From Naegleria gruberi (lineage: Eukaryota): a stretch of 64,000 nucleotides of DNA. The notes beneath the pieces were generated by a model. The model was not told where the DNA came from. It did no database searches and saw nothing but the letters and a program-made list of their open reading frames with translations. Each line of letters begins with the position of its first letter. Position 1 is the first letter of the stretch. Positions 8,146-31,034 of this stretch are shown piece after piece. The position numbers were made by a program, and so were the translations under genes. The stretch lies in NCBI GenBank assembly GCA_000004985.1, contig GG738866.1; one strand, 5' to 3'.

Positions 8146-11100
8146 ATGTCTTCCATATTTCACGTTCCAATCCTTATCCTTATTGTGCTTATTGCTTCAC
8201 AGTGGTGGTATTTAAATCAAGAAAGAACATTGAATCAATCATCATCACCAAATATCGATCTCGGCTTACTCTCAAAGGATTGTTCCTCTCAACTTGTTAA
8301 GAATTTCTACTTTGAGAAGGCTTTGAGCCAATATAAGGAAAAATGTCTTGTTGAAAAGAAGTGTGGTTCAGAATCATTAGAAGGTAGTGCTGAGAATGTA
8401 ATTAAGCAGATAGACGAATTAGTTTCCAATCAAAAAAAGCAAGCCTTGGAAAGAAGATGCAACAACCTTATTATTCATTCCGAAAATGTTCAAATTCTTC
8501 CAAAGCAAACAATTGTTGATCCAAAACTTGATGCAATTTGTGGTAATTCAACAGAATGCATTCAAACTGTTCATGAAATGATCATTTATCATCAGGCCTT
8601 TGCTTTTGCAGTTCAAAAGCTAAAGTTGGATCAAGAAAGTGTTAAGAGATTTTTACAATTACAAATCACCAATCTTGGAGAGAAGGCAAATTCAATTTTG
8701 GAATTTATCAGAAATCCTCAAGGTATTGAGGGTCCATCTGGTTTTTCCATTTCCTTGAAGCCAACACATTCCAGCCATCACTCATTCATCCAATCAGTTT
8801 TTTATGGTTTGATGGCATTGGCTTTGGGATGGTTGTATTTAATGTTCTGTACATTTGTTCAAGTAGAAGATGATTACTCGAAGAAAATGGCAGAGGCAAC
8901 TAGAGAGACAGATGAATTGAAAAAGAAATTGAAAGAGGCAACAGTAAAGGTTCTCGAAAAAGTTAAAGAACTCAATACTGAAAAGGAAAAATTAGAGCAA
9001 GATCTTTCAGATGAAAAGCAAACTTCAACAACATTGACAAGCGAGAAAAATCTACTAGAAAATGACCTTTCAACAATGACGACCAAGAAGAATCAATTAG
9101 AAAACGATTTAGCAAACGAAAAAAAATCTACAACATCATTGAGAACTCAAAAGAAAGAAATCGAGGACAAGCTTGAAAAATCCAAGAAGGAATACCAAGA
9201 CACTCTCAATAAGAAAGACAATGAACTAAAGAATACCAATGAAAAATTGAAAGTTGTGGAGAATGAGAATAAGCAATTCAAGAAGGATTTGGATACTAAG
9301 AGCAAGGATATTACCAACTTGGACAATTCGCTGAAGAAATCTAAGGAGCAAATTGCAGAACTTGAAAAATTGCATGCCCAACTAAAAAATGAAAAAGAAC
9401 AAACATTAAGAGATCTTTCGAATTGTAAACTCAGACTTGAAAAGGAGAATGAATTATGTTCTGCTCAACTCAAAAAGCTTGAACAAGAAATCAATAACCA
9501 AATCAATGATATGAAGCAAGTCGTCCAATCAAAGGTAGTATTAGAAAAACAACTCAAGAAAGTTGAGGAAATGCACAGTGAATTGAAGAGTGAGAAGGAC
9601 TTGCAGACCGAAGAATTTTCAAAAGAAAAGGAAAGATTGCTGGGAGAAATGAAGAATTTAGAAAATGAAGTAAAGAAACAAGCAAAGATTTGTGAAATAG
9701 AAAAGATCAACACTGAACTCTCTGAACAAATTCAACAATTATCATCTGAAAGAGATGCTATTCAAAACGCACTTAATGATGAAACTCAAAGATTAAACGG
9801 CCAAACAGAAAAGATCAGAAATGTATTGGTAGAGATCTCAACATTGAAGAATACAAATGAAGAACTTGAAGAAAAAATCAAATCTTTGGAGGAGGAAAGA
9901 TCAAACAAGGACCAAAGTATTGAATTTTTGCAAGAAGAAAGCAAGGTTCTATCTGAAACTGTTACAACACTTGAAACCAAATTGCAAGATATACATACAG
10001 AAGTTGAAGATATAAAGAAGCAATTGGAAGAAGTTGCATCTCTAAAGAAGCAATTGGGAGACAAGAAAATTGAATTGCAACAAATTAATGATGGCTTGAA
10101 TAATTTAGCTGTCCAACACCAAAAGGAATTGGAAAAAGAAAAACAAAAGATTGAAGAGTACGAAAGAACTATTACTGAACTCAAAAATTTACTTTCCGAA
10201 ATGAATAATGAGTTGATGGAAGACAAGTCAATAGAATTAGAGGCAGAACTGAAAGTTGTAAAGGAGTCTAACAGCAAGCTTTTGAAATGCATGGAAGAAA
10301 GAGATGAACAGATAACTAGCCTAGAGGAAGAAATTAAGGGTTTGAAGTCTCAAACCGAAACTCTTTCTGAAGAGGCAAAGAACTTGAAAGAATCATTGAA
10401 AGAAAAGGATAATGAAGTTGTGATATTGACAGAATTAGTGAAATCTGAAGATCAACTTTTGCAAGTTGACCAGGCTGAAATTAACAATTTGAGTAGTATT
10501 GTTAATCAAGCAGATGAAGGAATTACTTATCTTAAAAACGATTTGAATACTATTAGAACTGTTCTTGCTAGCACTGAAGAAAAGCTTAATAAGTCTGTAA
10601 AGGAGAAGGAAAGAATCTATGATGAATATGAAACTGTTCAAAGGGATGTAAAGAGATTAACAGAAGAAAAGCTTGAAATGGAGAAGGAAATCCAAATGTT
10701 AAAGCAAAGAAGCCCTCGTACATTCAAATCTTCACCATCAAGGGAGAAGGAAGAAAATAGGCGATTGAAGGAGAAGATTGAATTATTGGAAAAGAAACTC
10801 AAGTTATCTTTGAAAAAGATTCCATCTGATCAAAATCTCATCAACAACCTACCAATCATCAATACAACAGCTACCACGCCTTCCAGTTCTTCAACAAGTA
10901 CTTCACCAAGCACTGAACAGGATAAGGATGAATTAATCAAACGATTGAAGGAAAAGCTTGAAATTAAGGAAAACAAATTGAAGGCTGCCATTGTGAGTAA
11001 GCTTGAAGTTGTTGAAAGACTCAAAAACTATGAAGCAGATGCTCACTTCAGCACAGCTTCTGTTGGACCTGGAGCTAATCAACCACATCAGCAACCACAA

Positions 11101-11327: not shown

Positions 11328-11936
11328 ATGGCACTCTCCTATCAAACTGCAACAGAATACATAGCCTCACCAATGTATAGGAAGGCTTCATCAATGCCTG
11401 AATACTTTGATACAGACAGTGAAAATAAGGAGGAAATTACACAAGACCCATTCGAAAACATTATCAATAATACCATTGATGAGGAAGAAGATGATTGCTC
11501 CGATCCATTCTCGGAAGTAGACGAATTTCTTGATAACGAATCTGATCCATTCACAATATCTGATATTGATCCCTTCTTGTTGAAAGATGTTGATCCATTC
11601 CTTGTAGATGACAGAGATCCATTTTATGAAGTTGATGAATTTGATGAGGATGAGGTGGATCCATTTCTTGTGGAAGATACTGACGTTTTTAAGGCTAACT
11701 CATTATTGGATGCTGGAGTAGTGACAGATCCTTTCTTGGCAGAGCATGGAGTTAAATGTTTTGAGGAATATGATGGAGATGATCCATTCTTAATAGAAGA
11801 TGAAGAATATGATGAGAAGGAAATGCATTCTAAAGAAGAGAGCAGAAGTATCTTTGAGTTGGTTTTTACCCTTCACAATTTAGGCTTACTTTGTTTGATG
11901 GTTGCTTTATTAATTCTTTTGGTCAACCACAAATAG
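11328..11936 (+). CDS. Tail-anchored acidic protein with nine DPF motifs.
   Basis: ATG at 11328. Nine DPF tripeptides are embedded in D/E-rich sequence (QDPFENI, SDPFSEV, SDPFTIS, IDPFLLK, VDPFLVD, RDPFYEV, VDPFLVE, TDPFLAE, DDPFLIE). There is a single C-terminal TM (LGLLCLMVALLILLV) followed by NHK. Confidence 0.6.
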   Translation: MALSYQTATEYIASPMYRKASSMPEYFDTDSENKEEITQDPFENIINNTIDEEEDDCSDPFSEVDEFLDNESDPFTISDIDPFLLKDVDPFLVDDRDPFYEVDEFDEDEVDPFLVEDTDVFKANSLLDAGVVTDPFLAEHGVKCFEEYDGDDPFLIEDEEYDEKEMHSKEESRSIFELVFTLHNLGLLCLMVALLILLVNHK

Positions 11937-12080
11937 AGATTAAAAAAACTAGGATGTAGTAATAAATGTAAATAAAATTAATATCTAACGGAAGAGAAAT
12001 TGTACAATTCTCCTAATAATATAATTTGTTTTTGATTATTTGTTTGAGTTTGGTGTAACTTGATGATTTGTCACATTTCT

Positions 12081-14190: not shown

Positions 14191-17100
14191 ATGAAACAGT
14201 TACTCTCACCGAAATCTATATTACTTTTTATAATACTATCTATAGCTTCTATTGGATGGATGGTTATTGGCCAAGAGTTGCCCTACTCTTCATCATGGTC
14301 AATTACCAACTCGAATATTCAAACATGTAATACTATACGTGGTCAACAGGATGATTACTTTTATATGGGAGGTAAATTCAGTGGCAGTATTGATACAAGT
14401 GCTATAGGAGTCATATCTCCCGATAGATTTAATAACTCTGTAGTTTTGGCAACATCATTAACGAGTGAGGCGTATGCACTTAAGGTTCAAAAGTCAACTG
14501 GTAAGGTTGACTCATCTATTCAATTTGCACCAAGTGGCAATACAGAAACGATTCAAAGTTCAGAAATTATTTCAATAGGAACGAGTACTCAATTTCAAAT
14601 ATTTGCAGGAATTATCAATACAAATCAAGGAATTTTCATTTCAAAGTTTAACACCAATGGAATGGAATGGACACAAACCTATTTATTTTCGAGTGGAAAT
14701 TACATTACAGTGAGAGATTCAAAAGTGGTTGATACGAGTATTGTCATTGTAGGAACATACAGAGGAGACATTTCCATTAGTAATGGTTCAATTGCTCTCA
14801 CTTCATCCTCGAGTCAAGATTACGAAAACATGTTCATTGCTATTTTGGATATGACTGGATCTATTCAATATATCTATACTAATAATGGTAATAATGCTAA
14901 AGTCATACCACAGAATTTGCACTTGTCTTCAAATGGTGAATTTTGCTATGTTATGGGAGTTTTCAGCGGATCAACTTTGTCATTCACCAAATCCACTAGC
15001 TCATCAGAACAGCTAACTCTCACTTCAACAACTTCTACAGATCAGTACGATTTATTCCATCTCAAATATTCCATCACTAGTAAGGAGTTGGTTTGGCTCA
15101 TGGGCACTACAGGACCTCATCAGATGGACTATTCATACAAGATTGTTGGCAGCTCACCTTCGACCATTTATGCCTTCAGGGATATTATCATTGATCAGGG
15201 ATATAGTGAAAGCAGTGATTGTGGCAGCCAAACAGATGTTCCTATTGCAACTCTGACAAGGAATTTATTCACACTTCTCTCATCGAATGTTCTCTTTGGT
15301 GGAGCATCAGCCACAGGTTCTCAGAGTTTGAGCTTTTTCAAAGCTTTGGATTTTGCAGGATTTTCCAATTCAATTCTCTTCGATAATGGAACTACTTCAT
15401 CTGTTATGAACATTTCCAGATCGACACCACTAACTCTCTCTTCGACAGGATTTACTACCTGTCCTAACAAACAAGCTCTGATGAACTATTCCACAGAGTA
15501 TACATTGAATTATGCCAGTGGTTCCGAGACTATCCTTCTCAAATCCTATGTGAGCATACCAAAGTTATTGTTCACTTCCAATTACAATGTTGGTGTAATT
15601 AATTATGCTGGTATTACATCCACTTTGACATTTAACATGCCAAGTACACTGCTGAGTGTTATCGATAAGAATCTGGTTGTTGATGTTGGTGGAACGAAAA
15701 GGCCAGTGAAGAATTCCAATAATGTCTATACGGCAGACTTGTTTTCAACCACTGTAGGATGGAATAATATCACTATTTATTTCAATAATACTGCTCAGAA
15801 CAGGTATGATTTGATTTCTATGAATTCTGTCAAGACTTTCTTCTTTGATGATTCTTTGGTTATCAGTATTCAGAATAGTACAATTTTATTCAATAGCAGT
15901 ACTTTGAATAATGGTAGAGGTACACTAACATTGACAGGATTATTGAATTCCACGTATAATTTCCCACAGGAATATGTCAGCTCTATTATGTGTAGAGTGG
16001 CTCAACAAAATTTTGCTACCAATATTGATGGTAATCAGATTACATGTCAAAATGTTCCATTTTCAGAGAGGAACACGACAGTAGTACTTGTCTATAGATA
16101 CAGCAACTCTATTTTCTATAACATTTCAAGAAGTTTGGATTTGAGTTTTATTGAAACACGGACACTTACAACTTCTTCACAATACAGGGTGATTACAACA
16201 GATGAGCAAACCAAGGGATCGTTTGCTTTGTCTTTAACAATCGGTAAAACAATGGGCTCTTTGGATGTCAAATTGCAAGCAACAAATCAAAATGGAGCTG
16301 CTTCTTATTTACCATTTACAGTTTCATCAGGTACAAGTATTTCTGCAACCTTGGCAGTGGCTCAATTTGAAAAGGCAAATTTGAAATTTATGGTAAAATC
16401 TCAGAATGACTATGTGGATTTTACCAACACAATTTCTATTCAATTCTTGAAGCAAGTCAAGTTTACATCCTTGTCGAGTACCATTGATAATTCGAGACAA
16501 ATGAAGACCGCATTCAGTATTCAACCAAACCTGATAGATTCATTGAAATCTCAGCTAACTTGCCAATATAATGAGAGTCCAACATTGAGAACTGCTTTGA
16601 ATAGTACTGATAATACATGTAATATTGACAATCGATTCCTTTCCACAAACAATACTCTCCAATTATTGCTTAATATGGGAAATAATGTTTATTTACAAAT
16701 ATCAGACAGTATTTCATTGACATCTCCCTCACTACCAACAATATCCTTCCTATTTACTCCTAATTTTGGTATCAGTGGATTTACTAATATTACAACCGAA
16801 ATTACATCTCAAGATTTGATATTTGAACAATTGAAAAGAAATTTACAAATAGAAATTAATTCCATTCGTTATACACCAACTGTTGGGTCAGATGGAAAGG
16901 TTTCATTTCCACTTGTAACCTCAGTAGCCGGCTGGAATAATTTGACAGTTCTTGGAAAATATTCAACCAATGACACTTCATACTCTGTGATCAGCACTCA
17001 GAGTAAGATTTATTTCTTTAATACTCCACAAACAAATATTTTCACTTTCCCTAATGGAAATATCACACTCCTCACTCCATCCAGCAGTAGAAATTTCATG

Positions 17101-20100
17101 ATTGACTTGGTATTGAGTTCTCCCTTTGATATTCCTTATACCTTACTGAGTCCAAACAACTTTTTCTGTAACATATTTGGAGAGTCATATAGTGCCCAAT
17201 TTGTTTCCAGTACCAGAGTTCAATGTCAAAATGTAGTAAGCAGAGAAGGTGAAACTGATTCTTTTATCACAACTTCTATTCGAAATACCACATTTGAAAT
17301 ATCTTCGAGAAGTCTGTTCACCTTTGTTAAAACAAGAGAAATCAAACCTGTTGGAGTGTCTCTCATTCAATCTACTGATTTTTATATTGGAACATTGCCT
17401 CAAACACAAGCAACCTATTCGTTGCAGATTAATATTGAAGATAGCTTGTTCACTGCTCTACAAATTGAAAATACTCAAAAACTTGCTATTCAACTTACTG
17501 ATCTGCTAACCAATCAGAAACAAGTCAGATTCCCACAAATTACCAGAGGATTAAACATGTCTACTCTTTCACTCAACTTGGACGTTGCCACTTCCCAGTC
17601 CATTTTCAAATATGAAATTAGAGTATTGTTTAAAGGACTGGAGATTTCTCAAGTTGCATTAAAGTATCTTCTTGTGAGAGAATCACCAATTGGAAAGGTA
17701 ATTTCCTCCAGAGATTCCACTGATAATTTACTCATCAACATGCCAAGAATTTTATCAACAGCAACTTCAATTAGTGACGATGAAAAGTTAATTATGGACA
17801 GAGTGTACTGCTCTCTTGGAGATTCAACTCTTTCCAAGGTTACCTATTCTGTGAGTGGTGGTATTCAATGTAAATTTGCAACTGATTTCACATCAACACA
17901 AACCAAATCAGTTCAACTCTTCATGTCCATCAATACTGTGGCCACAAATAGTTCAGTTATCAAAATATCCTCCAACTCACAACAAGCATATCCAATCTAT
18001 TGTTATTCAATTCCTCACTATTTACCAACTGTTTGTTCTTCAAAGGGAACTTGTAAGCAAACTGATAACTGTACATGTACCAACAATTTCCAAGGAAATG
18101 ATTGCAGTTTCACCCAATGTTTTGGAATTGCATCCACTGATAAGACTGTCTGCAGTGGATACGGTCAGTGTCCAACCTCAAATAATTGTGTTTGTAATGC
18201 AGGATTTAGTGGCACAAGATGTGAAAATAAGGTCATGTATGTTTCTGAGGACAAATCATGGCTATCCACCAGTGAATCTATGAGCAGTTTACCAAGATCG
18301 CAACTCTCTGCTCTAATAGAAACAGAGAGTTTGTCCAAAGTTGAATGTGCATCTTTATTAGCAACTGCATCTATTGATACCATTGGAGTTGATGCATTTT
18401 GTTTTGTGAACTCTGTTGATATTGTAATCATGTTGAACAGGAACGTTATGAACAATACTGTATTACTATCTTCCTCGACTATTGGTAGCATCCTTTCGAA
18501 ATCATTTTCACAATATCAAGTGCTTGACACTAAAGGAAAGTCAACCAGTCCAGAAATTCTATTAAGAACTAGTTTCTCAAGTGTGAATTTCCCTGCTGTG
18601 GTTGAACCGCTCATTGTCACTGCATCACCTCTCTCAAATTTAGGTCTATCATGGCAAAGTGATGATCCAACTATTAACAGTCAACTTTCTTCATTTGCCA
18701 ATCAGTCAATTATCAAACTGAATTTAGGAGCAAAAACAAGACAAAATGTAATTTCTAATGGAGCTGTTAATTTGGTTTTGCAAGTTGCCGATTCAACATT
18801 CAATACTTTGACCAAATATTCCACTAAATTGCTTTTGAATCAATCTTCCAACTCTGGAGAAGCAATATTCAATTATGGAGGATCTCAAATTGAATGCCAA
18901 TCCTTTGCCTCATGTGATATTGCCTTTAGTGTTGCTCCTATTAAGGGGTCTTCTATTAGGTCATCTTTCAATCCTGACATTGGAAATATAACTACAAACT
19001 ACATTCATAATTTGAAAAGTTTTGCAGAGGGTTGTTCTACTGTATATTCCCTGCGTAGCAGTGAGAGCAAACAACTGTGTATTAAGATTAGAGATAAGGG
19101 TGTTATTCAATACTATTTGGATGTCAATACTCAACAAGATAATTCCATTGTAGTCACTTTGAGTCAATTCAACACTTCCTCTAAAGTATATTCAATTATT
19201 ACCAGTTCTAACTCTGATATTATACAATTGATTAATTTGAATACTAACACTTCTGTGCAAGGCGCGAAGGATGGAAGTAGTTCAGCAGTATATTTCAAGG
19301 GAATCAAAGAGCAAGAACCATACGAGATTAGATTTACTAGTTCATTAGGAAAGGCCTCCCTCAAGATTCAATATTCCACAAGTATGCAACTCAAGCTCTT
19401 AACATTCATTCCTAAAGTAATGGGAAGAAAATCTTCATTGATATTGTCTTCTCTGGTTGACTCTGATAGCAGCACAGTTCAACAAGTTGATTTCCTGTTA
19501 ACAAAGAAAGGCCAATCACAATCCACGTCTCTTCCAATAGTTCAACAATATAATGATCTGACCTTTTCACAAGCCCTGTTGAATGCTTCACTTTTAGATA
19601 GTGGATCTTTCTACATTCTGAGAGTTCAATCAAGGAATGCTAAAGGACATGTAACCTATATTGAACAATCTTTCTATGTACAATTAGAACCAAACTATAA
19701 TATCAATTGTGCTATTACTCCAAAAGAAGGAATTGCTTATGAAACAGAATTTACAATTTCATGTTTATCCAATAATTTAGATTTAGATACTTATCAATTC
19801 CTCATAACGAATGGTACTCATCAATTAGAGCTTTCCAAAGGAAGAAAGAGAGCATTCTTTACTAGAATTGGATTTTTACAAAATGCCAAACTTCAAGTCA
19901 AAACTAATGATGTTTGGAATAGTGAAAAGACAACAGAGTTCCCAATCCAACTCAAACATCCAAAACAAGTTTATCAAACATCTTTAGAATTTTATCAATA
20001 TTTAACAAGAAAAGTTCAGGATCTTCTCAATGAAGAAGTTTCTCCAAACAGTTTAGGATTTGATTATGTCAACAGTGTCATCACCTTCATGTCAATTCTT

Positions 20101-22182
20101 GGTGCTGACTCGAGTATTGTACCAAATTATGAATATAGAACAGAGTTGGGTTTGAGCTTGCTGGATATATTCGAAAAAGTCGTTGGCTATGCTAAACAGA
20201 ATAAGGATTCTACGTATATTGGAAGAAGTTTACCGATAATGAATCAATTCTTGCAACAATTTTCAAATACCACACAAACAAATAGAGATAGAGTCTATGG
20301 ACTGATCAACTCTACGTTGGATATATTACAAGACTTTTCATCAACTAATCCAAGTAGTAGTATTAATGATATATTTACTATTGTTGACAGAATTATTCCA
20401 CTAGTAGCAACTGATTTACAAACTCAATTATTCAACAAATTGAGAATAGTTAATCAACAGAATTTGTTTGGAAAGATGAAGAATGGTTATTTGGTTTCAA
20501 ACTTCTCCAAACTTTCCAATACTACTCTTGAAAATTATCAAATCATTAACTTGAATGTGTTGGGAAGAAAAATTTCAGAGCCAATCAATCTCGGTACACT
20601 TTCACTCAATCTTCCTTCACAAATTAGTTCAGATTCTTTGAATTCTCTATTTGAAGTGAGTGCTCTAATTTATCAAACCAAATCCAAAACAAGTAGAACA
20701 TTACAACAAGCTACCTCTATTCCTAATGTACAAGTTGCACTAACGAAGAATTCCATTCCACTTACCGATTCTTCACTAAATGTCAACATTACCTTCCCAA
20801 TCCAATTGAATAGTAAGACAAGAGCCCAATGTAGATCATTTTCCTTCCAGGAAGAACCAAAGAATCACACAACATTCCAATCCGAATCAGCAGTGGTATG
20901 CTTAGTGGCACTCTCAGATTTGAATAGAAACTTGTATATTTATACCTATGAAGGTATTTTTATAGGACCACTGCCACAAAATAGTGATAATGTGAAAGGT
21001 CCACTTCTTCAGGATAACACCTTGACCATAGCTTTGGCCACCATTTTGTCAACTGTTGGTTTGATATTTATATGCTGTTCACTCCTGGTATTGTTGTTCA
21101 TTATTGGAAAATGTAGAGGAAGAGGAAAGAAGGAAAATACACCAAATATGACAGAGTTTACCTATAAGGCATCTGGATCTCATTCTCCAATTGGAATTTC
21201 AGATCATTCTTCATCTGATAAGAATTCTGATACTTCATCAGAAAAACAACAAACTGAAAAGAATATCAATCAACGAGTGACTGAGAATGTTGAGCTATTG
21301 AATGGACAATATCAATTATTAGAAACCATTTCCATTCACTCCAACTATACTCTCTATAGAGCTAATAATATTAGTACAGGTCAGGTTGTGTGTATTAAGA
21401 AGATTGGATTTTCTTCTTTTGAGGAAATTAATTCATCATCCTCTGTTATTGTGAAAGAGTATACGAACATGTCTCGTACTCAACATGCTAATATTGTCAA
21501 GTTACACGAGGTGTTTGTTGATACAAGTCTTAAGGCAGTTTGTTTAGCTCTTGAATATTTCGAGCTTGGAAATTTGAATGAATTACTACTCAAGCGAATT
21601 CAACAAAACCAAATATTTGATGAGATTCATATTGGTCAGATATTGTATCAACTTTCCCAAGCTCTTTCGTATCTTCATGATGAATGTGGATTGTGTCACA
21701 GGAATATCAGGTTGGAAAACATATTTGTAAGACAATTTACACCACAAAAAATTGATATTTGTTTGGGTGAATTTACAGATTCGAGATCCAGAAACTCACT
21801 CAAAATAGAACATGATGTGCAAGACCAATCGTTTGGATCTGCTATAAGTTCTTATAAGTTTGGTAATTTTACCAAAGCTGTGAAGGAAAATGCAATCAAA
21901 TCTACCAGTGACCAGTTTACGTCTGAAGATACATTCCAGGTTGCGTGTGTAATGTACAAACTAATGTCGTTTGATATGGAGAGTAAGGTCAATTCATTAT
22001 TTGAGGAGTATGAGTTTGAAAAAGACGTATTCACATTGCTAGAATCAAGGATACACTCATCATATTCTAGTGAAATAGTTTCCATCATCTTGTCAATGTT
22101 TGCTCGAGAAGAAAAAAATCGTCCAACAATGAACCAAGTCACCAATTTATTGGGCAATGTATTCAAGTTTGAAACACAATAA
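14191..22182 (+). CDS. Giant (2663 aa) type-I membrane receptor with a cytoplasmic pseudokinase domain.
   Basis: It is a single 7992-nt ORF with an ATG at 14191. It starts with a signal peptide (MKQLLSPKSILLFIILSIASIGWMVIG). The ectodomain is about 2250 aa, S/T/N-rich, with many N-x-S/T sites and two tenascin-type EGF modules around nt 18030-18230 (CSSKGTCKQTDNCTCTNNFQGNDC...CSGYGQCPTSNNCVCNAGFSGTRCE). One TM lies at about 21025-21110 (TIALATILSTVGLIFICCSLLVLLFIIGKCRGRGKK). A kinase-like domain of about 270 aa follows. It has VCIKK (a VAIK-like Lys), HRNIRLEN instead of HRDLKPEN, LGEF instead of DFG, and no GxGxxG loop. Confidence 0.8.
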   Translation: MKQLLSPKSILLFIILSIASIGWMVIGQELPYSSSWSITNSNIQTCNTIRGQQDDYFYMGGKFSGSIDTSAIGVISPDRFNNSVVLATSLTSEAYALKVQKSTGKVDSSIQFAPSGNTETIQSSEIISIGTSTQFQIFAGIINTNQGIFISKFNTNGMEWTQTYLFSSGNYITVRDSKVVDTSIVIVGTYRGDISISNGSIALTSSSSQDYENMFIAILDMTGSIQYIYTNNGNNAKVIPQNLHLSSNGEFCYVMGVFSGSTLSFTKSTSSSEQLTLTSTTSTDQYDLFHLKYSITSKELVWLMGTTGPHQMDYSYKIVGSSPSTIYAFRDIIIDQGYSESSDCGSQTDVPIATLTRNLFTLLSSNVLFGGASATGSQSLSFFKALDFAGFSNSILFDNGTTSSVMNISRSTPLTLSSTGFTTCPNKQALMNYSTEYTLNYASGSETILLKSYVSIPKLLFTSNYNVGVINYAGITSTLTFNMPSTLLSVIDKNLVVDVGGTKRPVKNSNNVYTADLFSTTVGWNNITIYFNNTAQNRYDLISMNSVKTFFFDDSLVISIQNSTILFNSSTLNNGRGTLTLTGLLNSTYNFPQEYVSSIMCRVAQQNFATNIDGNQITCQNVPFSERNTTVVLVYRYSNSIFYNISRSLDLSFIETRTLTTSSQYRVITTDEQTKGSFALSLTIGKTMGSLDVKLQATNQNGAASYLPFTVSSGTSISATLAVAQFEKANLKFMVKSQNDYVDFTNTISIQFLKQVKFTSLSSTIDNSRQMKTAFSIQPNLIDSLKSQLTCQYNESPTLRTALNSTDNTCNIDNRFLSTNNTLQLLLNMGNNVYLQISDSISLTSPSLPTISFLFTPNFGISGFTNITTEITSQDLIFEQLKRNLQIEINSIRYTPTVGSDGKVSFPLVTSVAGWNNLTVLGKYSTNDTSYSVISTQSKIYFFNTPQTNIFTFPNGNITLLTPSSSRNFMIDLVLSSPFDIPYTLLSPNNFFCNIFGESYSAQFVSSTRVQCQNVVSREGETDSFITTSIRNTTFEISSRSLFTFVKTREIKPVGVSLIQSTDFYIGTLPQTQATYSLQINIEDSLFTALQIENTQKLAIQLTDLLTNQKQVRFPQITRGLNMSTLSLNLDVATSQSIFKYEIRVLFKGLEISQVALKYLLVRESPIGKVISSRDSTDNLLINMPRILSTATSISDDEKLIMDRVYCSLGDSTLSKVTYSVSGGIQCKFATDFTSTQTKSVQLFMSINTVATNSSVIKISSNSQQAYPIYCYSIPHYLPTVCSSKGTCKQTDNCTCTNNFQGNDCSFTQCFGIASTDKTVCSGYGQCPTSNNCVCNAGFSGTRCENKVMYVSEDKSWLSTSESMSSLPRSQLSALIETESLSKVECASLLATASIDTIGVDAFCFVNSVDIVIMLNRNVMNNTVLLSSSTIGSILSKSFSQYQVLDTKGKSTSPEILLRTSFSSVNFPAVVEPLIVTASPLSNLGLSWQSDDPTINSQLSSFANQSIIKLNLGAKTRQNVISNGAVNLVLQVADSTFNTLTKYSTKLLLNQSSNSGEAIFNYGGSQIECQSFASCDIAFSVAPIKGSSIRSSFNPDIGNITTNYIHNLKSFAEGCSTVYSLRSSESKQLCIKIRDKGVIQYYLDVNTQQDNSIVVTLSQFNTSSKVYSIITSSNSDIIQLINLNTNTSVQGAKDGSSSAVYFKGIKEQEPYEIRFTSSLGKASLKIQYSTSMQLKLLTFIPKVMGRKSSLILSSLVDSDSSTVQQVDFLLTKKGQSQSTSLPIVQQYNDLTFSQALLNASLLDSGSFYILRVQSRNAKGHVTYIEQSFYVQLEPNYNINCAITPKEGIAYETEFTISCLSNNLDLDTYQFLITNGTHQLELSKGRKRAFFTRIGFLQNAKLQVKTNDVWNSEKTTEFPIQLKHPKQVYQTSLEFYQYLTRKVQDLLNEEVSPNSLGFDYVNSVITFMSILGADSSIVPNYEYRTELGLSLLDIFEKVVGYAKQNKDSTYIGRSLPIMNQFLQQFSNTTQTNRDRVYGLINSTLDILQDFSSTNPSSSINDIFTIVDRIIPLVATDLQTQLFNKLRIVNQQNLFGKMKNGYLVSNFSKLSNTTLENYQIINLNVLGRKISEPINLGTLSLNLPSQISSDSLNSLFEVSALIYQTKSKTSRTLQQATSIPNVQVALTKNSIPLTDSSLNVNITFPIQLNSKTRAQCRSFSFQEEPKNHTTFQSESAVVCLVALSDLNRNLYIYTYEGIFIGPLPQNSDNVKGPLLQDNTLTIALATILSTVGLIFICCSLLVLLFIIGKCRGRGKKENTPNMTEFTYKASGSHSPIGISDHSSSDKNSDTSSEKQQTEKNINQRVTENVELLNGQYQLLETISIHSNYTLYRANNISTGQVVCIKKIGFSSFEEINSSSSVIVKEYTNMSRTQHANIVKLHEVFVDTSLKAVCLALEYFELGNLNELLLKRIQQNQIFDEIHIGQILYQLSQALSYLHDECGLCHRNIRLENIFVRQFTPQKIDICLGEFTDSRSRNSLKIEHDVQDQSFGSAISSYKFGNFTKAVKENAIKSTSDQFTSEDTFQVACVMYKLMSFDMESKVNSLFEEYEFEKDVFTLLESRIHSSYSSEIVSIILSMFAREEKNRPTMNQVTNLLGNVFKFETQ

Positions 22183-22189
22183 AAGTTTA

Positions 22190-25100
22190 TTATTTCCTTG
22201 GTGATCTTGGTGAAATTTGATCGTAGGAAACAGCAGCAAAAGCTTTTTGCAAGCTAGCTAACTTGATCTCAATTTCATCTAATAATTGAGGAGGTGAAGA
22301 AGGAATTGGGTAAAAATAATCTTCTCTCAAAGGTGATTGTGGAATATCCATATGCCCTTGGGAGATTGATAAACCTTCTTTAGTTGTTTCTGCCATGATA
22401 GTAGCTAATTGCTCAAGTTGGCCAATAGCAAATTTCAAATCATTCTCGAGTTTCTTTGTGTAAGCTTCCAAACCTTGTATACCGTCCGTAAGAGTCTTGA
22501 CGGTTTCTTGTTGGCGTAATATTTCCCCATTCAGATTTTCAATTGTTCCTCTTAGTTCTGAACTTTCCTTTGCGTTTTGGTTTTTTAACTTTTCCAACGC
22601 TTCTTGCTTGTCAACAAGTAGCTCCTTTTGAGATTGAGATAATTTTTCATTCTCTTGGAGAATACCATGTAAATCTTTCATAGACTCCTGCAAGAGTTGA
22701 ATCTCCTTCTTTGCCTGACTCTTTTCCTTCTCTAAAATTGATCGTAGCTCGTCTTCTCTTATTTTCATTTCAGCATCTGCTTTTTTCTTCTCATTAAATA
22801 CCTTTTGCATTTCATCTTTTAGCAACTTTAAAGTTTCTGTCTGCAAGAAAATACCTTCTTCTAGCTGTTTTGTTTTTTTCCTTTCCTTTTCTAAATAATC
22901 TTTAAATGTTTCCAAATCATTCTTAAGGCGCCCAATATCTTCAACCGATTTTTCTTGATATTCTTTAAACTCCTCTCCCTTGGTTCTCACTTTTGATTTT
23001 TCCTTTTCCAGCAATTCTGCTTTTGAATTAACCAACTCTTTAAGCTTGTTTGTTTCTTCTTTTTCAACCAAAAGGTCCATCTCAATCTTGCTCAAGTCAA
23101 TTTCCATATTCTGTTTATACAGGTTCATTTCCTTTTCAAATTCTTTCTTTTCATTCATAATTTTTTCTATCTCTTTGTTTTTTTGTGTAAGCTCTTCTTC
23201 AAATTTCTTAAGGAAGTTGTTTAAATCTCCAATTTCTTTCTGATTTTGATTTTTCAAGTCTGTCAAGCTTCTATTTTCCTCTGAAAGTTCGTTTTCTATA
23301 TGCTTCAAACTCTCTACCACCTTCTCAAGTTCTTGTTTAACTGCTGATTCTCTTTGTAACTTGGATTCACCTTCTAAGTTTGCACGTTCAATGCCTTCAA
23401 GAGATTTTTCTAATTCCTGCTTGACATTTGCGAGCTCATTGGATAAATCTTCTTCTTTTTGATTCTTTTCAATCATCAACTGTTTGATATCAACAAGATC
23501 TTTGTGTAATTCTCTTACAGAGTTACTTTCTCTAGTGATTTGTTCTTCCCTTTCGCTTAACTTTTCTTTAAGGGAGCATATCAAGTTCTCCTTTTCAGAT
23601 AATTGAGTGGATAGATTGGCCTTCTCAGATATTATAACGGCCAATTGTTCTGTTGCATTCTTGGCCTCCTCTTCAAGAATTTTAAGCTTGATTTCTCTTG
23701 AAGATTTATCTTCCAAAAGAGAATTGAGTTCCTCTTGAAGATTTAATATATCTTTTTTCAGATTTGTCAAGTCTTGTTGCAACTCACTGTTTTCGTGCAT
23801 TAAATCTCTCACCCTATGCTGTTGTGCCTCTATGAAACTCTCAGTTTTGACTCTTGATACAGTATTCTCAGATACGATTTCTTTTAGTCTCGAGTTGTCT
23901 TTTTCGAGATCATTAACACGGTTTTTGAGCTTTTCAGTTTCATCCAAGATTGCTTGCTTTTCATCTTTTTCAGATTGGATATTTTCTGTTAGTGAGATTA
24001 CCAAGTTAGATTTTTCTTCGTGCAATTTATCAATAGTAGTTCTCAAGTTTTCAACTTCACTCTCGCTTGAATGAAGAATACCTTGTATTTTAGCTTTAAT
24101 GTCTTCTTTTTCTTTCTTGAGGTCATCCCTTTCCTTTTCGATAGCAGACGATTTGTTTTCCAATTGTTTCAACTTTCCATCTGTATCTGAAATAACTTTT
24201 TGTAGATTTTCAATGTTCAAATCAGAAACTTCCAATTTAGAACATAAATCCTTATTAATATCTTTGAGAGCTACAATCTCATTATTAAGAACAGAACATT
24301 CTTGTTGTAATTGGTCATTCTTCGATTTCAATTCTTCTAGAGAGGATGTAATATCTTGAATCCTTGCTTCCGTATCCAATAACTTTTCAGTAAGGGTGGT
24401 ATTTTGGGAAATAAAATTAATTTTCTCATTTTCTGCAATAGTAGTCATTTCTATTAGCTGTTGTTCGAGCTCTTTGTACTTCTGCATTTGATGTGACAAA
24501 TCAGACTTTGAATTTGAAAGCTCGTTATCGAGAGCTTCCTTTTGTGAAAGTAGTTGTAGATTTTCATCCTTGGTGGATTCAATTGTGTTTTGCTGATCTT
24601 GGACTTGTGAGGTGCAGTCATCAAGTGACTCCTTTAATTTTAGAATTTCTGATTGTGATTGAGAGTACTTTTCAGTTAACTCTTGATTTTTCTCCTCTTG
24701 GACTTTTCTAAATAGATCAAACTCCTTGCATTTAGAATTGATCGATTCATTCATAGAAAATAATTTCGATTCCTTTTCCTGTAAGAGTTCTTCTTTTTCT
24801 GCAATATTATTTCCCAAGGTTAATATTTTATCTTTCAACATATCCATTGTGGAATTCTTGCCGTAAAGCTCATTTTTCATTCGATTAAGTTGATCTTCCA
24901 AATTGCTTAGTGAGTTTGTAAGCTCGTTGTTGGTAGTTTCTAATGTTTGCTTTTTCTCAAAAAGGCCAGTGTTAATATTTTCCATTTCACAAATCTTTGC
25001 TTGTTTCTCTTCGACAATTTTCTTTTCCTTCATCCTCCAACTTCCTCATTTCTTCCAACAGTCTTTCCTTTTCTTTAGAAAATTCTTCACTCTTCTTTTC

Positions 25101-28100
25101 ATTTTCCTTCTCCAATACATTGATGGTCTCTTCAAGTTTCAATACGCAATTATCATACTTATTCTTATTCTGTTCCATTTCTTGTCTTGCCTTTTCCAAT
25201 TCATTCTTTGTATCTTCAAGCTGTCTAATTATTTCTTCTTGCTTTTCACTTAGTGCCAATTTCTTTGCCTCAAGATCTAAATTATGTTGTTCAAGTACTT
25301 GAACCTGTTTTTTCAAATCTTCAATACAGAGAGTATCTTGTTGTGCTCTCTGTTTCAACTCTACGCTAGTATTTTCTGCTTCATTAAAGCGTTCTTCAGC
25401 ATTTGCACGAAGGGTTTCTTCTTTCAACAAACCAATTTTCAAAATATCTAGCTTCTCTTGAAGAACTACTCGATCACTTTCAAGCTTCTTCTTGTCATTA
25501 TTTAAATTCTTTTCTGACTCTTTCAGAATTGAAATTGACTTTTCTAGTTCTTTCACTTTATCTGTTTGCTTCTTAGCATTCATGGTAGCATCCTTGAGTT
25601 CATATTTCAATGTATCAATAGTTTTACCAAGATATTTCACTTCTTCTAGGAGTTTTGATTTCTCTGATTCTAATTGCTTAATTTTTGAATTGTGTGAATT
25701 AACTTCTTTTGCATTTTCTTTGAGTTGCTCTTTTTGGGTGTTCATAACATCTTGAAGAACTTTGATTTTCTTTTCTTGAGTATTACACATTATCTGTGTT
25801 TCTTCTTTGTCTTTAGTCAATAAGTCAGCCTCCTTAGATTTATCAAGAATCTCTTTAGACAATCTTGTTATTGCTTCAGAAGTAGTTCGTTCAAGATTAT
25901 ACTTTTCTGTATTTAATTGAGATATATATTGATCCAACATAGTCTTCTGTTGCTCAACATTGTTAATGCTCTCTTTCAGCTCTTGGTTGGAGGATTCAAG
26001 ATTCTCTATAAATGATTGTTTTTCTTTTGATGTTTGAATTTCCTTGGTAAGAGTTTCTTGAATAACATTTCTTTCAGATGATAATTGTTGAATTTGTTCA
26101 GAGAGTTCACAAATCTTTGCTTGTTTCTCCTCGACTATTGCCTTTTCCTTCTTTACTTCATCCTCCAACTTCCTCATTTCTTCCAACAGTCTTTCCTTTT
26201 CTTTAGAAAATTCTTCACTCTTCTTTTCATTTTCATTTTCCAATACATTGATGGACTCTTCAAGTTTCAATACACAATCACCATACTTATTCTTATTCTG
26301 TTCCAATTCATTCTTTGCATCTTCAAGCTGTCTTATTATTTCTTCTATATCTTTCTTTAAATTCTGTTCTGACTCTTGCAGTGTTTCAAGGGCCCTCTCC
26401 AGCTCTTTCACTTTATCTTTGTACATTTCTAAATTGTTGGTAGCGTCTTTGAATTGAGATTCTAAATTATTAATAGTTTGACCAAGATCCTCCAATGTTC
26501 GTTGGCGATTATCATCTTCCTGCTGTTTGTCATTAATAACCGAAGCAAGTTTAATCTCGCCTTGTCGAACATTTTCACGTAAATTGTTTACAACTGTTTC
26601 CAATTCTTGATTACATTTGGTGAGGTTTTGCACTGTGTCTTCAAGATGTTTCAATTTATCAAGAAGGGTAATATTTGAGGATGCCAGTTGATTTGAAAGT
26701 TCCTTTTCTTTTCTGAAACCATATTGTATATTTTGTAGCTCCTGTGAAATACGAGTGTTTTCTTTTTCTAATTGATTGTTTGCTGTTGATAAAGCCTGGT
26801 TATCGTCCGATAACTTGAGCAGCAAATCTTCATTTTGTCTAATATTGTCTGTCAGGTTTGATTTCTCTGATTCCAACTGTTTGATTAGTGAAATTTGTGA
26901 AATGGTTTCTTTAGCACTTTCTTTGAGTTGCTCTTTTTGAGTGTTCAAAAGGTCTTGAAGAACTTTGATACTCTTGTCTTTAGCATTACATGCTGTTTCA
27001 GTGTTGCTTATCCTTTCTTTAAGCTCTTTAGTAGAAGTCTCAAGAAGGTTCTCCATTATTGATTGTTGCTCTTTTGATAATTGAATTTCATTATTGAGAG
27101 ACTTTTGAATGGCATCTCTTTCAGATGATAATTGTTGAATTTGTTCAGAGAGTTCAGTGTTGATCTTTTCTATTTCACAAATCTTTGCTTGTTTCTCCTC
27201 AGCTATTTCCTTTTCCTTCTTTACTTCATTTTCTAAATTCTTCATTTCTTCCAACAGTCTGTCCTTTTCTTTAGAAAATTCTTCACTCTTCTTTTCATTT
27301 TCCTTCTCCAATACAGTAATAGATTCCTTTAGTTTCAATACACAATCATCATACCTATTCTTATTCTGTTCCAGTTCATTCCTTGCATCTTCAAGCTGTC
27401 TTATTATTTGTTCTCTATCACTCTCAAGGCTCTTCTTGTCATTATTTAAATTCTTTTCTGACTCTTTCAGAATTGAAATTGACTTTTCTAGTTCTTTCAC
27501 TTTATCTGTTTGCTTCTTAACATTCATGGTAGCATCCTTGAGTTCATATTTCAATGTGTTAATGGTTTTACCAAGATATTTCACTTCTTCTAGGAGTTTT
27601 GATTTCTCTGATTCTAATTGCTTAATTTTTGAAGCATTTTCTTTGAGTTGCTCTTTTTGAGTGTTCATAACATCTTGAAGAACTTTGATTTTCTTTTCTT
27701 GAGTATTACACGTTGTCTGTATTTCTGCTTTGTCTTTAGTCAATAAGTCAGCCTCCTTAGATTTATCAAGAATCTCTTTAGACAATCTTGTTTTTTCGTT
27801 TTCCATGACTTCCTTTTGGGTTTTCTTTTCTCCAGAAAGATCTATTATTTTGTTTTCTAACTGTTTAATACGTGACTGCTGTTCAAGTAAATCAAGTTGT
27901 TTAGACTCTAAATTATTAGCCAACTCTATGTTCTGAGTTTTGATTTGGGTCAAGTCTTTCTCTAATCCTGTTATTGTTTCATAATTTGCTTGTTGAAGAT
28001 TGTCCTTTTCTGTATTTAATTGAGATATATATTGATCCAACATAGTCTTCTGTTGTTCAACATTGTTAATGCTTTCCTTCAACTCTTGGTTGGAGGATTC

Positions 28101-31034
28101 AAGGTTGGCTATCATTAATTGTTTGTTTTTTGATACTTGAATTTCGTCGTTGAGCGTGAATTGAATGGCATCTCTTTCAGATGATAATTGTTGAATTTGT
28201 TTTGATAGCTCAGTGTTGATCTTTTCTATTTCACAAATCTTTGCTTGTTTCTCTTGAGTCATCTATTTCCTTCTTCACTTCATTCTCCAACTTCTTCATT
28301 TCTTCCAACAATCTGCCGTTTTCTTTTGAAAATTCTTCTAATTGTTTCATTCTTGAATTAGCTTCATTAGCATTTTCTTTGAGTTGCTCTTTTTGAGTGC
28401 TCATGAGGTCCTTGAGAATATTGATTTGTTTCTCTTTAGCGTTACATGTTGTTTCAGCATTGCTAATCTTTTCTTTCAACTCTTGATTAGTGTGCTCGAG
28501 ATTATCGATAACCGATTGTTTGTCTTTTGATACTTGAAATTCCTTCTTAAGAGTTTCTTGAATAGAATCTCTTTCAGATGATAATTGTTGAATTTGTTTT
28601 GATAGCTCAGTGTTGATCTTTTCCATTCCACAAATATTTGCTTGTTTCTCTTGAACCATTTCTTTTCCCTTCTTCACTTCATTCTTCATTTCTTCCAACA
28701 GTCTTTCTCTTTCCTTTGCTAAACGGCAATCTTCCAACCGCATATCTTCAATCCTTTTTTCATGTTCATCCTTCAAGTTATCATACATTTTCTCAACTTC
28801 TAAAATTTGTACATGTAGACCTCTCAATTCATCATTTCTGTGTGCTAAATCTTCACTAAGATTTTCTATTGTTTTCATAGCCTCGGCAACTTGCTGCTCG
28901 GTTTTGAAGAGTGCTTCACCTTTACCAAGGTTTTCTCCAGTTAAATTTTCAACCTCACCCAGCAATTCTTCAATTTTCTTTTCATTCTCACAAATGGTGT
29001 GACAAAGATCCTGTTTGTTTTGTTCGAGAGACTTGGATAACTGCACTAGATCTTCTAAATATTGGTGCATTTTCTCCTTCTCTTGTAAAAGTTGCTGCCT
29101 CTCAGAAGCAATCTCATTGTTAGCTTGATCGAGTTGGTCAATTTTCTTCTTTTGTTCCATTGTTTGTTCTTTCTCTACATTGAGTTCGTTTAATCTTTCC
29201 GAAATTGAGTGTTGTAAAACGCTAATTTTCTCATCCTTTCTTTCGATATCACTCTTAAGTTGTTCGGTTTCATTCTCCATCACTTTCAACTTCTCAACAA
29301 TAATATTTGCCTCTTCTCTTCTCTTGTTGCAACAGTCCTCAAGATCTTTTTCTCTAGCATTTAGTCTTTCTGTCAATCGCTTTATATCCTCCTCGAGTTG
29401 TGTTGTTCTTTGAGATTTAGTATCCTGTTCATAGGTTAAATCCTTAATTTTTTCTCGGAGACTTTGGGATTCTACTTGTTTTTTCTCCCACATATTAGTA
29501 ATTTTTGCTAGCTTTTCATCTTTCTCATTTAATTGGAGAGAAAGGCTATCATTTCTTGTTTGTAAAGCATTCAACTCTTCTTCCTTCTGTTGGTTAAGTT
29601 GGTCTAGAGCAGAAATATTGGACAGAGAGTCTTTCACTTATCTTTCAGCTCCGATATCTTTGTGTTTTTGGTATCTATAATTTTTGCAGAGTTTTCATTT
29701 TCCTCACGTAAAGAAGAAACTTCTCCTTTAAGTTTGGTAACTATTTCAGAAATATTGATTGTTTCTCTTTCTAATTCTGCAGATCTTTCCGTAGATCTTT
29801 CCTTTTCTTTGGTTACCTTTTTTAACTCTTGGAAAATATTATTATGTCTTATTTGTACCTCATTTTCTTTTTTCTGAGATTCTGTCTTTAATTGTTGGAT
29901 TTCGTTTTCCAACTTTTCTTTAAGAGATGTGGCTTCTTTCTTTTGCAAGGATAAGTCTTTATCAAGACCCCTATTCTTTTCTGTTAGAGAAGAAACTTTC
30001 TTCGATAATTCTTCTTCTTTCTTCTTTGCTGCCTCCTTTTCTTTTGCACTTTCTGCATGAAGTTTGGTAGTTGAGGTCTTGTATTGCTCATCTAATCTCT
30101 CAAGGTTTGAGTTTTGAGTTCTTGCTTCGGTTTTTGCTTCCTCGAACTTTTGTTCAAGATTAGCTATTGTGTCTTTGAGCGATGCAACTAAATCTCTGCT
30201 TTCTTTTAATTCATTCTGTTTGATTTTGCTTCTTTGATTAGCAGACTCTAGATCTTTGTTCAGCCTATCTATTCTATTCTCCAATGAGGTTTGCTCCAAT
30301 GTGAGAGACTTGTATTGCATGACCATCAATACCACCATAATACCAAAAATGATAGATGTTACAACCTTATCTTCCCTCTCATCATCAGTGTTATCCATTG
30401 TGGTCTTGACAGAAATATCAAATCCTGAATATCCCTCCAACCCTGGTACAGTTCTAATGAATTGTGAAACCTTATCGGGCTCATCAAATAATTTGGAAGC
30501 CTTTGTTTCCATGAACTTTCTGATGTGTTGAGTGTTGAGGTTTGTCTTTTCATTTGCATATTCAAAGACTTGCATATAAATAATTACTTCAAAGACTGCA
30601 CTCATACACTTTGTGGAGCCTCTACAAATCGAATAGACACGATGATCAACCTCCTTCTTTAAAATTGGAACAACCTGCTCATGATGAATAACAAGATTAC
30701 CACACTCACTATTCAAAGACTTTTCTAATTGCCTGGAAATCATTGCATCAATTTTTCTATCTAAATTGGCCACACCACAGTATTTGTTATCGGAAGCGCA
30801 ACCATTCTTGTATTCTGTTAAGGCTTGAACAAAATAAAAATTCTTGATGAGTTGTGAATGGCAATCTTGCTCTAGCAGAGACAAATCGATGAGTGAAGTC
30901 TCGTTAATTATTATGGTCTTTGATGAGGGTATTGTTGTAAAATCGCTCGACTTGAATGGTGTATAAAATTGGCTAATTATCAATACCACCAAGGCTAAAG
31001 CACTAAGGAACAAATTTATCCTTGTAGCTTGCAT
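22190..31034 (-). CDS. Giant hairpin-anchored coiled-coil protein gene. It is read as four consecutive minus-strand ORFs (29634..31034, 28231..29637, 24987..28262, 22190..25033) separated by frameshifts. It is either a pseudogene or carries assembly errors.
   Basis: ATG at 31034 (MQATRINLFLSALALVVLIISQFY). The N-terminal TM, Cys loop, TM module is paralogous to the 8146 gene (DCHSQLIKNFYFVQALTEYKNGC vs DCSSQLVKNFYFEKALSQYKEKC). About 2700 aa of K/E/Q/L heptad coiled coil follow, with repeated EEKQAKICEIEKINTELSEQIQQLSSERDAIQ units. The non-repetitive C-terminus ends ...SPRSPRK at 22190. At each ORF junction the upstream ORF stops 10-12 codons after the downstream ORF opens in another frame. 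Compared with in-frame sister repeats, there is an 8-nt deletion near 25020 and a net -2 change near 28250. Confidence 0.55.
24986..28700. repeat. Tandem near-identical coding repeats, unit about 1.06-1.12 kb, at least 3.4 copies.
   Basis: The motif ttcacaaatctttgcttgtttctc recurs at 24986, 26106, 27174 and 28230, with a variant at 28627. Each copy is followed by more than 200 nt that are near identical. Nested sub-blocks are also shared: 25668-25990 matches 27608-27800 and 28010-28110. A reverse-complement copy of the same about 80-nt core lies in the plus-strand paralog near 9690-9770. Confidence 0.8.

Follow-up and report, generated by a model that had tools for sequence, protein, structure and literature searches.

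A small Naegleria orphan family of putatively membrane-anchored long coiled-coil proteins, with two inverted paralogs that probably exchanged a short tract by gene conversion

INTRODUCTION

Several described protein families combine a membrane anchor with a coiled-coil rod in the cytoplasm, and they provide the frame for two genes analyzed here, gene A (positions 8146 to 11154, plus strand) and gene B (positions 31034 to 22190, minus strand), which lie in a 64,000-nucleotide stretch of the Naegleria gruberi contig GG738866.1 (assembly GCA_000004985.1); the whole stretch is called the window below. The nearest working analogies are kinectin/p180, TANGO1/cTAGE5, STIM1, and CCDC47. Kinectin (KTN1) and p180 (RRBP1), the closest functional analogy, resemble A and B in having an N-terminal membrane anchor and a very long cytoplasmic coiled-coil rod; their anchor is a single N-terminal transmembrane helix, and they possess essentially no lumenal domain. 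With TANGO1 (MIA3) and cTAGE5, the likeness lies in a lumenal N-terminal domain, one or more membrane segments, cytoplasmic coiled coils, and a proline-containing tail. TANGO1 belongs to a metazoan family and features an SH3-like lumenal domain, a long lumenal region, and a true proline-rich domain that binds Sec23/24. STIM1 and CCDC47 show a comparable order of a signal peptide, a lumenal domain of approximately 100 to 200 residues, one transmembrane helix, and a cytosolic coiled coil; the latter spans approximately 100 to 250 residues, and the lumenal domains are of the EF-SAM type or acidic and Ca-binding.

Giant rods on membranes are also known from the KASH proteins (nesprins), which present a giant cytoplasmic rod and only a small lumenal part; they end in a C-terminal transmembrane helix and a lumenal peptide of about 30 residues. 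Brr6 and Brl1 are nuclear-envelope proteins with a lumenal cysteine domain between two transmembrane helices and no giant coiled coil; they would be comparable to A and B if the first hydrophobic segment of the latter were retained in the membrane, as two helices would then flank a disulfide-bonded lumenal domain. Giantin, golgin-84, and CASP, finally, are giant rod-like coiled-coil tethers with one membrane anchor, a conserved C-terminal transmembrane domain, and N. gruberi itself possesses CASP and golgin-84 (PMC5840792). The proteins described here belong to none of these systems, golgins and KASH proteins included, because the defining features that were looked for are absent from them. 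They form a family of long coiled-coil proteins with an N-terminal membrane anchor, which probably serve as lineage-specific cytoplasmic tethers.

RESULTS

Homologous N-terminal modules precede long heptad coiled coils in A and B

Gene A (NAEGRDRAFT_67250, XP_002677530.1) is a continuous open reading frame (ORF) of 1002 residues on the plus strand, extending from the first ATG at 8146 to a stop codon ending at 11154, as an earlier note on this DNA had read it. Its N-terminal module of about 240 residues aligns with that of gene B at 35% identity over 238 residues (E = 2e-46), which bears out the paralogy and common architecture proposed in that note; a tblastn search of the window found no third copy. 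In both proteins the module consists, in this order, of a hydrophobic segment, a cysteine-containing helical domain of about 190 residues, and a transmembrane helix. The first segment of A comprises residues 1 to 23 (8146 to 8214), with a Kyte-Doolittle maximum of 2.01 and a helix at residues 6 to 30 in the AlphaFold2 model, and represents either a signal peptide or a signal-anchor helix (TM1). The adjoining domain (residues 24 to 216, 8215 to 8793), which is predicted to be lumenal or extracellular, contains six cysteines (C1 to C6) at positions 46, 67, 73, 105, 132, and 138, with an NST sequon between C5 and C6. It is followed by the transmembrane helix at residues 217 to 240 (8794 to 8865; Kyte-Doolittle maximum 1.90; AlphaFold2 helix 211 to 244).

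In B, on the minus strand, hydropathy places the first segment at residues 1 to 27 (30954 to 31034) and the transmembrane helix at residues ~224 to 241 (30312 to 30365), within a hydrophobic stretch of residues ~221 to 246. The intervening helical domain, likewise predicted to be lumenal or extracellular, covers residues 28 to 223 (30366 to 30953) and has cysteines at positions 58, 79, 86, 111, 137, and 143. A motif in this domain reads DCSSQLVKNFYF in A and DCHSQLIKNFYF in B. The earlier note had described the N-terminal part as two transmembrane helices enclosing a cysteine loop; the hydrophobic segments, the cysteine region, and the motifs were found as described, while the retention of both helices goes further than the sequences establish. 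In the AlphaFold2 model the N-domain is all-helical. Pfam searches with the N-domains of the six family members introduced below returned no family at E<=5, and neither a sequence-profile search of the PDB nor a fold comparison of the N-domain gave a match. For the full-length proteins, Pfam reported only subthreshold generic coiled-coil matches, e.g., KASH_CCD with 17 bits against a cutoff of 43.3.

The membrane segment of A is followed by a predicted cytoplasmic heptad coiled coil of approximately 616 residues (8878 to 10725), delimited with a heptad statistic. The excess of hydrophobic residues at heptad positions a and d in the best register is 0.50 for A and 0.47 for B, compared with 0.18 ± 0.01-0.02 for shuffled sequence, and proline is nearly absent, with one residue in 616 in the coiled coil of A and none in 2621 in that of B. 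The giant coiled coils claimed in the earlier note are thus seen in both proteins, with the reservation that the rod of B is interrupted by three frameshifts. Given the standard coiled-coil rise of ~0.148 nm per residue, a continuous rod would be about 90 nm long in A, and that of the frame-repaired B could reach about 390 nm. The tail of A (10726 to 11154), in which Ser, Thr, Pro, and Gln abound, is mostly noncoiled and includes a single short helical stretch. Tails of both proteins contain 7 to 10% proline, their C termini are hydrophilic, and no hydrophobic segment is present in the C-terminal part of either protein, in agreement with the view of the earlier note that their topology differs from that of tail-anchored golgins and KASH proteins. 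A likeness by eye between the C-terminal sequences EDYFYPIP of B and PEYFPTPI of the N. lovaniensis relative was not used, the tail alignments not being significant.

The public model of gene A, XP_002677530.1, has only 614 residues, as it omits residues 273 to 660 (388 residues) as an "intron" of 1164 nt (8962 to 10125). This segment is open in frame, encodes coiled coil, includes the unit shared with B that is described below, and starts and ends with GTTAAA...AAAAG. The genuine introns of the window, located at 6416-6525 (sortilin gene), 45472-45556 (HSP70 gene), and ~47580-47660 (ABC transporter gene), are A+T-rich, measure ~40 to 50 nt, begin with GTAAGT or GTATGT, and end with TTTAG. With ends that do not match and approximately 25 times their length, the 1164-nt "intron" is almost certainly an annotation artifact.

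The N-terminal module defines a small family

A profile of the N-terminal module built from the two sequences of A and B served as the HMMER query against a collection of 1.84 billion representative proteins. Only six proteins were found. Three are A, B, and the N. lovaniensis protein C9374_003907 (P0125); the others come from environmental ENA contigs and comprise P0123 and P0124 of assembly ERZ27315067 and a fragment, P0126. The four members other than A and B were matched with E values of 1e-8 to 1e-11 (6.5e-9 for C9374_003907). All full-length members display the same architecture, i.e., the domain, a hydrophobic segment, and at least several hundred residues of coiled coil, and their total length ranges from 689 to ~2950 residues. 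Three cysteines, C1, C5, and C6, do not vary in the family alignment, and the full set of six occurs in four of the six members. Two motifs recur, Q-L/V-x-K-N-F/Y-x-F and N-L-I/V-I; five of six members have an N-x-S/T sequon in the interval from C5 to C6, and K or R directly follows the second hydrophobic segment in four of five. A and B themselves combine the homologous module, the invariant cysteines, the motifs, and a hydrophobic segment plus coiled coil after the domain. A scan of JGI metagenome contigs with the A+B alignment revealed no relative.

The rods show no conservation among the members beyond generic coiled-coil similarity. P0124 possesses a tandem repeat of its own, with three copies of ~85 residues (EDLKKQKSQLDT.VTITEQ.CNSLKEQIRNLTDEKKALEQQLD...) that are unrelated to the N. 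gruberi unit; it is located at positions 382 to 2952 of its contig (L006), and the same assembly holds P0123 (L005) as a diverged second paralog. The annotated C9374_003907 lacks the first hydrophobic segment, its start MHHMDEVMGIEFM being spliced to YFERLD. The genomic frame upstream (PYSW02000001.1, L001 at ~10050-10130) reads MRLWVLSLCVGLCVMHGWCSEHH...FERLDTECYHQL, and the unspliced frame MRLWVLSLCVGLCVMHGWCSEHHKENNTREKWLRNVIDFERLDTEC... restores the N-terminal hydrophobic segment that all other members possess, the re-read start being MRLWVLSLCVGLCV...; the annotated start is therefore probably wrong. Bit scores are 144 for A against B, and 62 and 48 for A and B, respectively, against the N. 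lovaniensis protein. We regard it as probable that A and B are old paralogs in a small orphan family, detected so far only in Naegleria and a few environmental contigs.

Gene B is interrupted by three frame breaks

The earlier note had treated B as one gene from 31034 to 22190. The locus (22190 to 31034, minus strand) proved to consist of four successive ORFs in differing frames, 31034-29634, 29637-28231, 28262-24987, and 25033-22190, with 466, 468, 1091, and 947 codons, which together encode ~2947 residues once the frame is repaired. The first is identical to the public model NAEGRDRAFT_48880 (XP_002677609.1, 466 residues), which ends at the first break. Both public models of the pair, which lie on a 469,335-bp scaffold, are therefore faulty, XP_002677530.1 being without 388 residues and XP_002677609.1 stopping at a frameshift.

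The three breaks, J1 to J3, amount to 1, 2, and 8 nt and are real features of this assembly. At J1 (29634 to 29640) the sequence TAAGTGA contains a stop codon in both frames, so that the single-base indel must sit exactly there. At J2 (28231 to 28262), located just upstream of a copy of the shared unit, 2 nt are missing in comparison with intact sister repeat copies, and J3 (24987 to 25033) is an 8-nt deletion between GAAG direct repeats, as judged from the copy at 26123. Every GT..AG pair that would restore the frame was enumerated and judged against the genuine introns of the window, and no candidate had the local intron signals and length; for J2 and J3, the candidates would excise sequence that is plainly coding in sister repeat copies. 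Introns were therefore rejected as the cause of the breaks.

Within the four segments, in-frame stop codons are absent in spite of the high A+T content of the DNA (66%). The ratio of nonsynonymous to synonymous substitution rates (dN/dS) between the repeat copies of B is 0.30 to 0.43, with dS values down to 0.23, suggesting that the disrupted downstream part has been under purifying selection. The open segments and the low dN/dS imply either a very recent inactivation of B, which may be confined to one haplotype, or an erroneous consensus in this repeat-rich region.

A short tract shared by A and B points to recent gene conversion

The rod of A contains a single copy of a unit shared with B (9558 to 9804) with a core at 9676-9765, and B holds a nearly identical core (KQAKICEIEKINTELSEQIQQLSSERDAIQ) at 27105 to 27194 on the minus strand. 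As the earlier note had noticed, these cores are inverted relative to each other; DNA alignment of A 9676-9765 with B 27194-27105 gives 89 identical nucleotides out of 90. A and B each contain an exact match to a 39-mer from the core, and B has an additional match that differs at one position; the rest of the window contains none, and 0 occurrences are expected by chance. Around the core, DNA identity is 83 to 87% over 124 to 160 nt and drops to 50 to 65% farther out, while at the protein level the homologous stretch extends over ~200 residues (A 452 to 644 versus B 870 to 1064, 46% identity). The idea that both coiled coils are built from this one 32-residue unit did not hold up, since A has one copy and B five, at residues ~798, 928, 1280, 1636, and 2011 once the frame is repaired; the copies at 1636 and 2011 are degenerate. 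The copies of B sit within long tandem repeats spaced 130 to 375 residues apart, which form an array at 24940 to 28720 (minus strand) with a spacing of 1047 to 1128 nt and one short interval of ~0.4 kb. Tandem Repeats Finder, run with a period limit of 500 nt, did not report the ~1.1-kb repeats.

Synonymous sites in the N-domains of A and B are saturated (proportion of synonymous differences [pS], 0.83; dN, 0.63), which indicates that the duplication is old. Against this background, codons for the same amino acid are identical at 29 of 30 positions in the core, 15 of 18 in the 21 codons just upstream, and 17 of 37 in the alignable flanks (core versus flanks, Fisher p=4e-6). The pattern points to a likely recent conversion or transfer of a short tract of ~160 nt, broken by a 24-nt indel, between the two old paralogs; in A the inferred tract covers about 9610-9768. 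An alternative without conversion is that the core contains a functional motif at the peptide or nucleotide level, e.g., a partner-binding site, and that strong purifying selection has held it nearly identical. The encoded 31-residue peptide is indeed well kept in A and in three of the five copies of B and is the best conserved part of every repeat, yet the synonymous positions of the core are identical as well, which favors conversion over selection at the protein level, and neither the N. lovaniensis nor the environmental members have the motif. We consider selection alone an improbable account. Transfer from B to A appears likelier than the reverse, because the unit is amplified in B and missing from the N. 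lovaniensis and environmental family members.

The locus and its neighbors

A (plus strand) and B (minus strand) are convergent and, as the earlier note stated, face each other across a gene for a receptor-like protein of 2663 residues (14191 to 22182, plus strand). This protein features an N-terminal signal segment, EGF/teneurin-like repeats, a transmembrane segment at residues ~2276 to 2310, and a C-terminal kinase fold. The latter is likely a pseudokinase, judging by its motifs: it has HRN in place of HRD, no DFG (by eye, only GEF near the expected place), and no glycine loop. The stop codons of this gene and of B are 7 nt apart in a tail-to-tail arrangement (22180-22192), and the 3' untranslated regions of the two genes must therefore overlap.

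The N. lovaniensis ortholog of the pseudokinase gene encodes 3081 residues and is only ~28% identical. There, the gene order is Sortilin(+), family member(+), EGF/kinase(-), HSP70(+), GNL2(+), and RhoGEF(-), with the family member and the kinase gene lying tail to tail, 95 nt apart. For N. fowleri, the right-hand part of the locus was read and shows kinase(-), HSP70(+), GNL2(+), and RhoGEF(-). In N. gruberi, Sortilin(+) is followed by A(+), and the orthologous kinase gene is on the plus strand. The orientation of the pseudokinase gene relative to A is thus flipped compared with N. lovaniensis and, in part, with N. fowleri. The N. lovaniensis member adjoins the Sortilin gene like A does, in support of orthology, and with Sortilin beside A and the kinase gene beside B, the two ancestral neighbors of a single-copy gene are split between A and B.

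The species assignment itself agrees with GNL2/NGP1 (41940-44324, minus strand), which is 91% identical to the N. gruberi public model over the covered part, compared with 76% for N. fowleri and 74% for N. lovaniensis; the organism is N. gruberi, a member of the Heterolobosea, and not an amoebozoan as supposed in the earlier note. Two further ORFs were recorded in the vicinity. One, at 11328-11936 (plus strand), encodes an acidic protein of 202 residues in which the tripeptide DPF recurs about a dozen times and which ends in a hydrophobic tail anchor (LGLLCLMVALLILLV); Pfam gave no match for it, and the syntenic N. lovaniensis interval lacks it. DPF is a motif that binds the ear of the clathrin adaptor AP-2. 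The other, beside B at 31402-34221 (minus strand), encodes 939 residues, of which the N-terminal two thirds are very acidic and of low complexity, whereas the C-terminal third looks structured; it had no Pfam match either and is unrelated to A and B.

DISCUSSION

Weighing the alternatives

Several points weigh against the reading of A and B as members of a Naegleria family of anchored tethers with giant rods. The coiled-coil call comes from a home-made heptad statistic instead of a calibrated predictor, and the AlphaFold2 model was built on six sequences only. The apparent restriction to Naegleria hinges on the sensitivity of HMMER for a fast-evolving domain; a word-indexed protein search, which gave zero matches and missed even the entries of A and B themselves, is uninformative for this family. 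Literature searches by locus tag, accession, and gene number found neither gene mentioned. With its three interruptions, finally, B may not yield its giant product in this strain at all.

The last point leads to the reading of B as a recently dead or truncated gene, in which the frameshifts are real, the 466-residue product of the first ORF (the N-terminal module plus ~220 residues of coiled coil) is made alone or nothing is made, and the downstream 2500 codons are decaying. We rate this only slightly below an even chance. Three independent breaks, none with local intron signals, speak for it, as do the coincidence of the first with the end of the public model and the nature of the 8-nt break, which is a slippage-type deletion between GAAG repeats and no homopolymer error; indel errors are uncommon in Sanger assemblies, which we take the reference genome to be. 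It is opposed by the four long segments without an in-frame stop at 66% A+T and by the dN/dS values among the repeat copies, according to which any inactivation must be very recent. A further objection is that two of the three breaks fall within repeats, the sequence most prone to haplotype mosaics and to errors of assembly or consensus. The topology of the N-terminal module, which B shares with A whatever the state of its rod, is moderately well supported as far as the two sides of the membrane are concerned: the conserved cysteines, the sequon, the K/R residues after the transmembrane helix, and the N-terminal position of the first segment suggest that the cysteine domain is lumenal or extracellular and the rod cytoplasmic. 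Whether the first segment is retained as a helix or is a signal peptide whose cleavage yields a type I protein leaves these sides unchanged and determines only whether the term "hairpin-anchored" holds, and the sequences divide about evenly between the two. A hairpin, with both segments retained as helices flanking a lumenal loop, is a possibility that we put just short of even. It would agree with the uncharged N-terminal stretch of 17 to 25 residues in all members, with the conserved aromatic cluster at the end of this stretch (QWWY, QFY, QWWY, MFWF, MFWF), which resembles an interfacial belt and is typical of a retained anchor, with a segment conservation that is above average and better than in typical signal peptides, and with the long helix at residues 6 to 30 in the AlphaFold2 model. 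A signal peptide is favored by the location at the extreme N terminus, a basic (K/R) n-region in five of six members (gene A has none), small residues at the candidate -3/-1 positions (IAS, IIS, LAS, A-W-A|S in P0126, and V-W-A|N in P0124), and the re-read N. lovaniensis start MRLWVLSLCVGLCVMHGWC, whose hydrophobic core spans only ~12 to 17 residues. The first segment also resembles the N-terminal signal segment of the neighboring type I receptor-like gene, a hydrophobic region of equal length (SILLFIILSIASIGWMVIG), so that length does not discriminate in this organism.

How the present arrangement of the interval arose can be approached from the same inverted tract on which the inference of conversion rests. 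An ancestral order Sortilin(+)-X(+)-kinase(-), with X as the single-copy family gene, might have gained an inverted copy of X, after which an exchange between the coiled-coil regions would have flipped the kinase gene and given each of the two copies the 3' half of the other. The synteny fits such an inversion, in that the N. lovaniensis arrangement, together with the right-hand part in N. fowleri, differs from N. gruberi by the flipped kinase gene and the ancestral flanks of X are divided between A and B, and so does the inverted, recently homogenized tract that the two genes carry; the proposal of the earlier note, which tied the cores to gene conversion or inversion, gains from both the synonymous-site identity and the synteny. 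The same map would, however, arise if an [X + kinase] block had been duplicated in inverted orientation and one of the two kinase genes had then been lost. Further rearrangements have also taken place, as the N. lovaniensis interval lacks B, the 939-aa ORF, LETM1, SNARE, PH, BTB, and the 202-aa ORF, and the C-terminal tails are too diverged to tell which half is orthologous to which. This particular inversion is accordingly rather unlikely, and given that other genes have moved in and out, the history of the interval is not uniquely recoverable. Nothing suggests an ongoing programmed inversion switch. 

Comparison with known systems

Each of the systems named at the outset differs from A and B in defining features. 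Unlike kinectin and p180, A and B have a cysteine domain of ~190 residues and a second hydrophobic segment before the rod, and no sequence similarity connects them. The all-helical N-domain without Pfam match and the only mildly proline-rich tails (7 to 10%) set them apart from TANGO1 and cTAGE5. Neither an EF-hand nor a SAM domain was detected in the six N-domains by Pfam, and no fold match links them to STIM. Relative to the golgins, the polarity of the rod is reversed, the anchors of A and B being located at residues 1 to 27 and ~217 to 246 with a lumenal domain of ~190 residues. In contrast to KASH proteins, their C termini are hydrophilic, and the subthreshold KASH_CCD score reflects generic coiled-coil similarity. 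With regard to Brr6/Brl1, the N-domains of the family gave no match to Brr6_like_C4C (PF10104) at E<=5.

By analogy with the tethers among these systems, the rod would hold or space a membrane compartment relative to the cytoskeleton, vesicles, or another organelle, with oligomerization through the coiled coil. The small outer domain, which would be disulfide-bonded and is probably glycosylated, may serve dimerization or ligand contact, and the noncoiled Ser/Pro-rich tail could be the distal end that binds a partner. The rod appears to evolve fast through tandem duplication of long units, by which B would have expanded, and a piece of ~160 nt with a 90-nt core would recently have been copied between B and A by gene conversion. 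A much bolder version holds that the N-domain is a new lumenal or extracellular fold which defines Naegleria-specific, possibly hairpin-anchored giant tethers of reversed polarity, and that recombination between A and B both flipped the pseudokinase gene and exchanged rod segments. Such tethers could link the nuclear envelope, the endoplasmic reticulum, the contractile vacuole, or the plasma membrane to the cytoskeleton. To our knowledge, Naegleria, an amoeboflagellate, has no stacked Golgi and no interphase cytoplasmic microtubules. This version, taken as a whole, is very improbable.

Significance for Naegleria

Proteins of this kind are familiar and fairly ordinary, protist genomes commonly encode long coiled-coil proteins specific to one lineage, and the finding has no bearing on a long-standing open question; the family itself is an uncharacterized, lineage-restricted orphan, and the larger of the two genes may be nonfunctional. 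The conversion tract and the flipped pseudokinase gene are tidy evolutionary details and no surprises, and the locus is a neat, small-scale example of inverted paralogs that diverged long ago and yet share a short, likely converted tract, next to a lineage-specific gene flip. If the tether reading is true, the family would represent a lineage-specific way to build membrane-anchored cytoplasmic rods and one more organelle tether outside the opisthokonts, in which tandem duplication shifts rod length roughly six-fold among family members. It would then be a candidate for unexplained links between membranes and the cytoskeleton in a heterolobosean genus that includes the pathogen N. fowleri.

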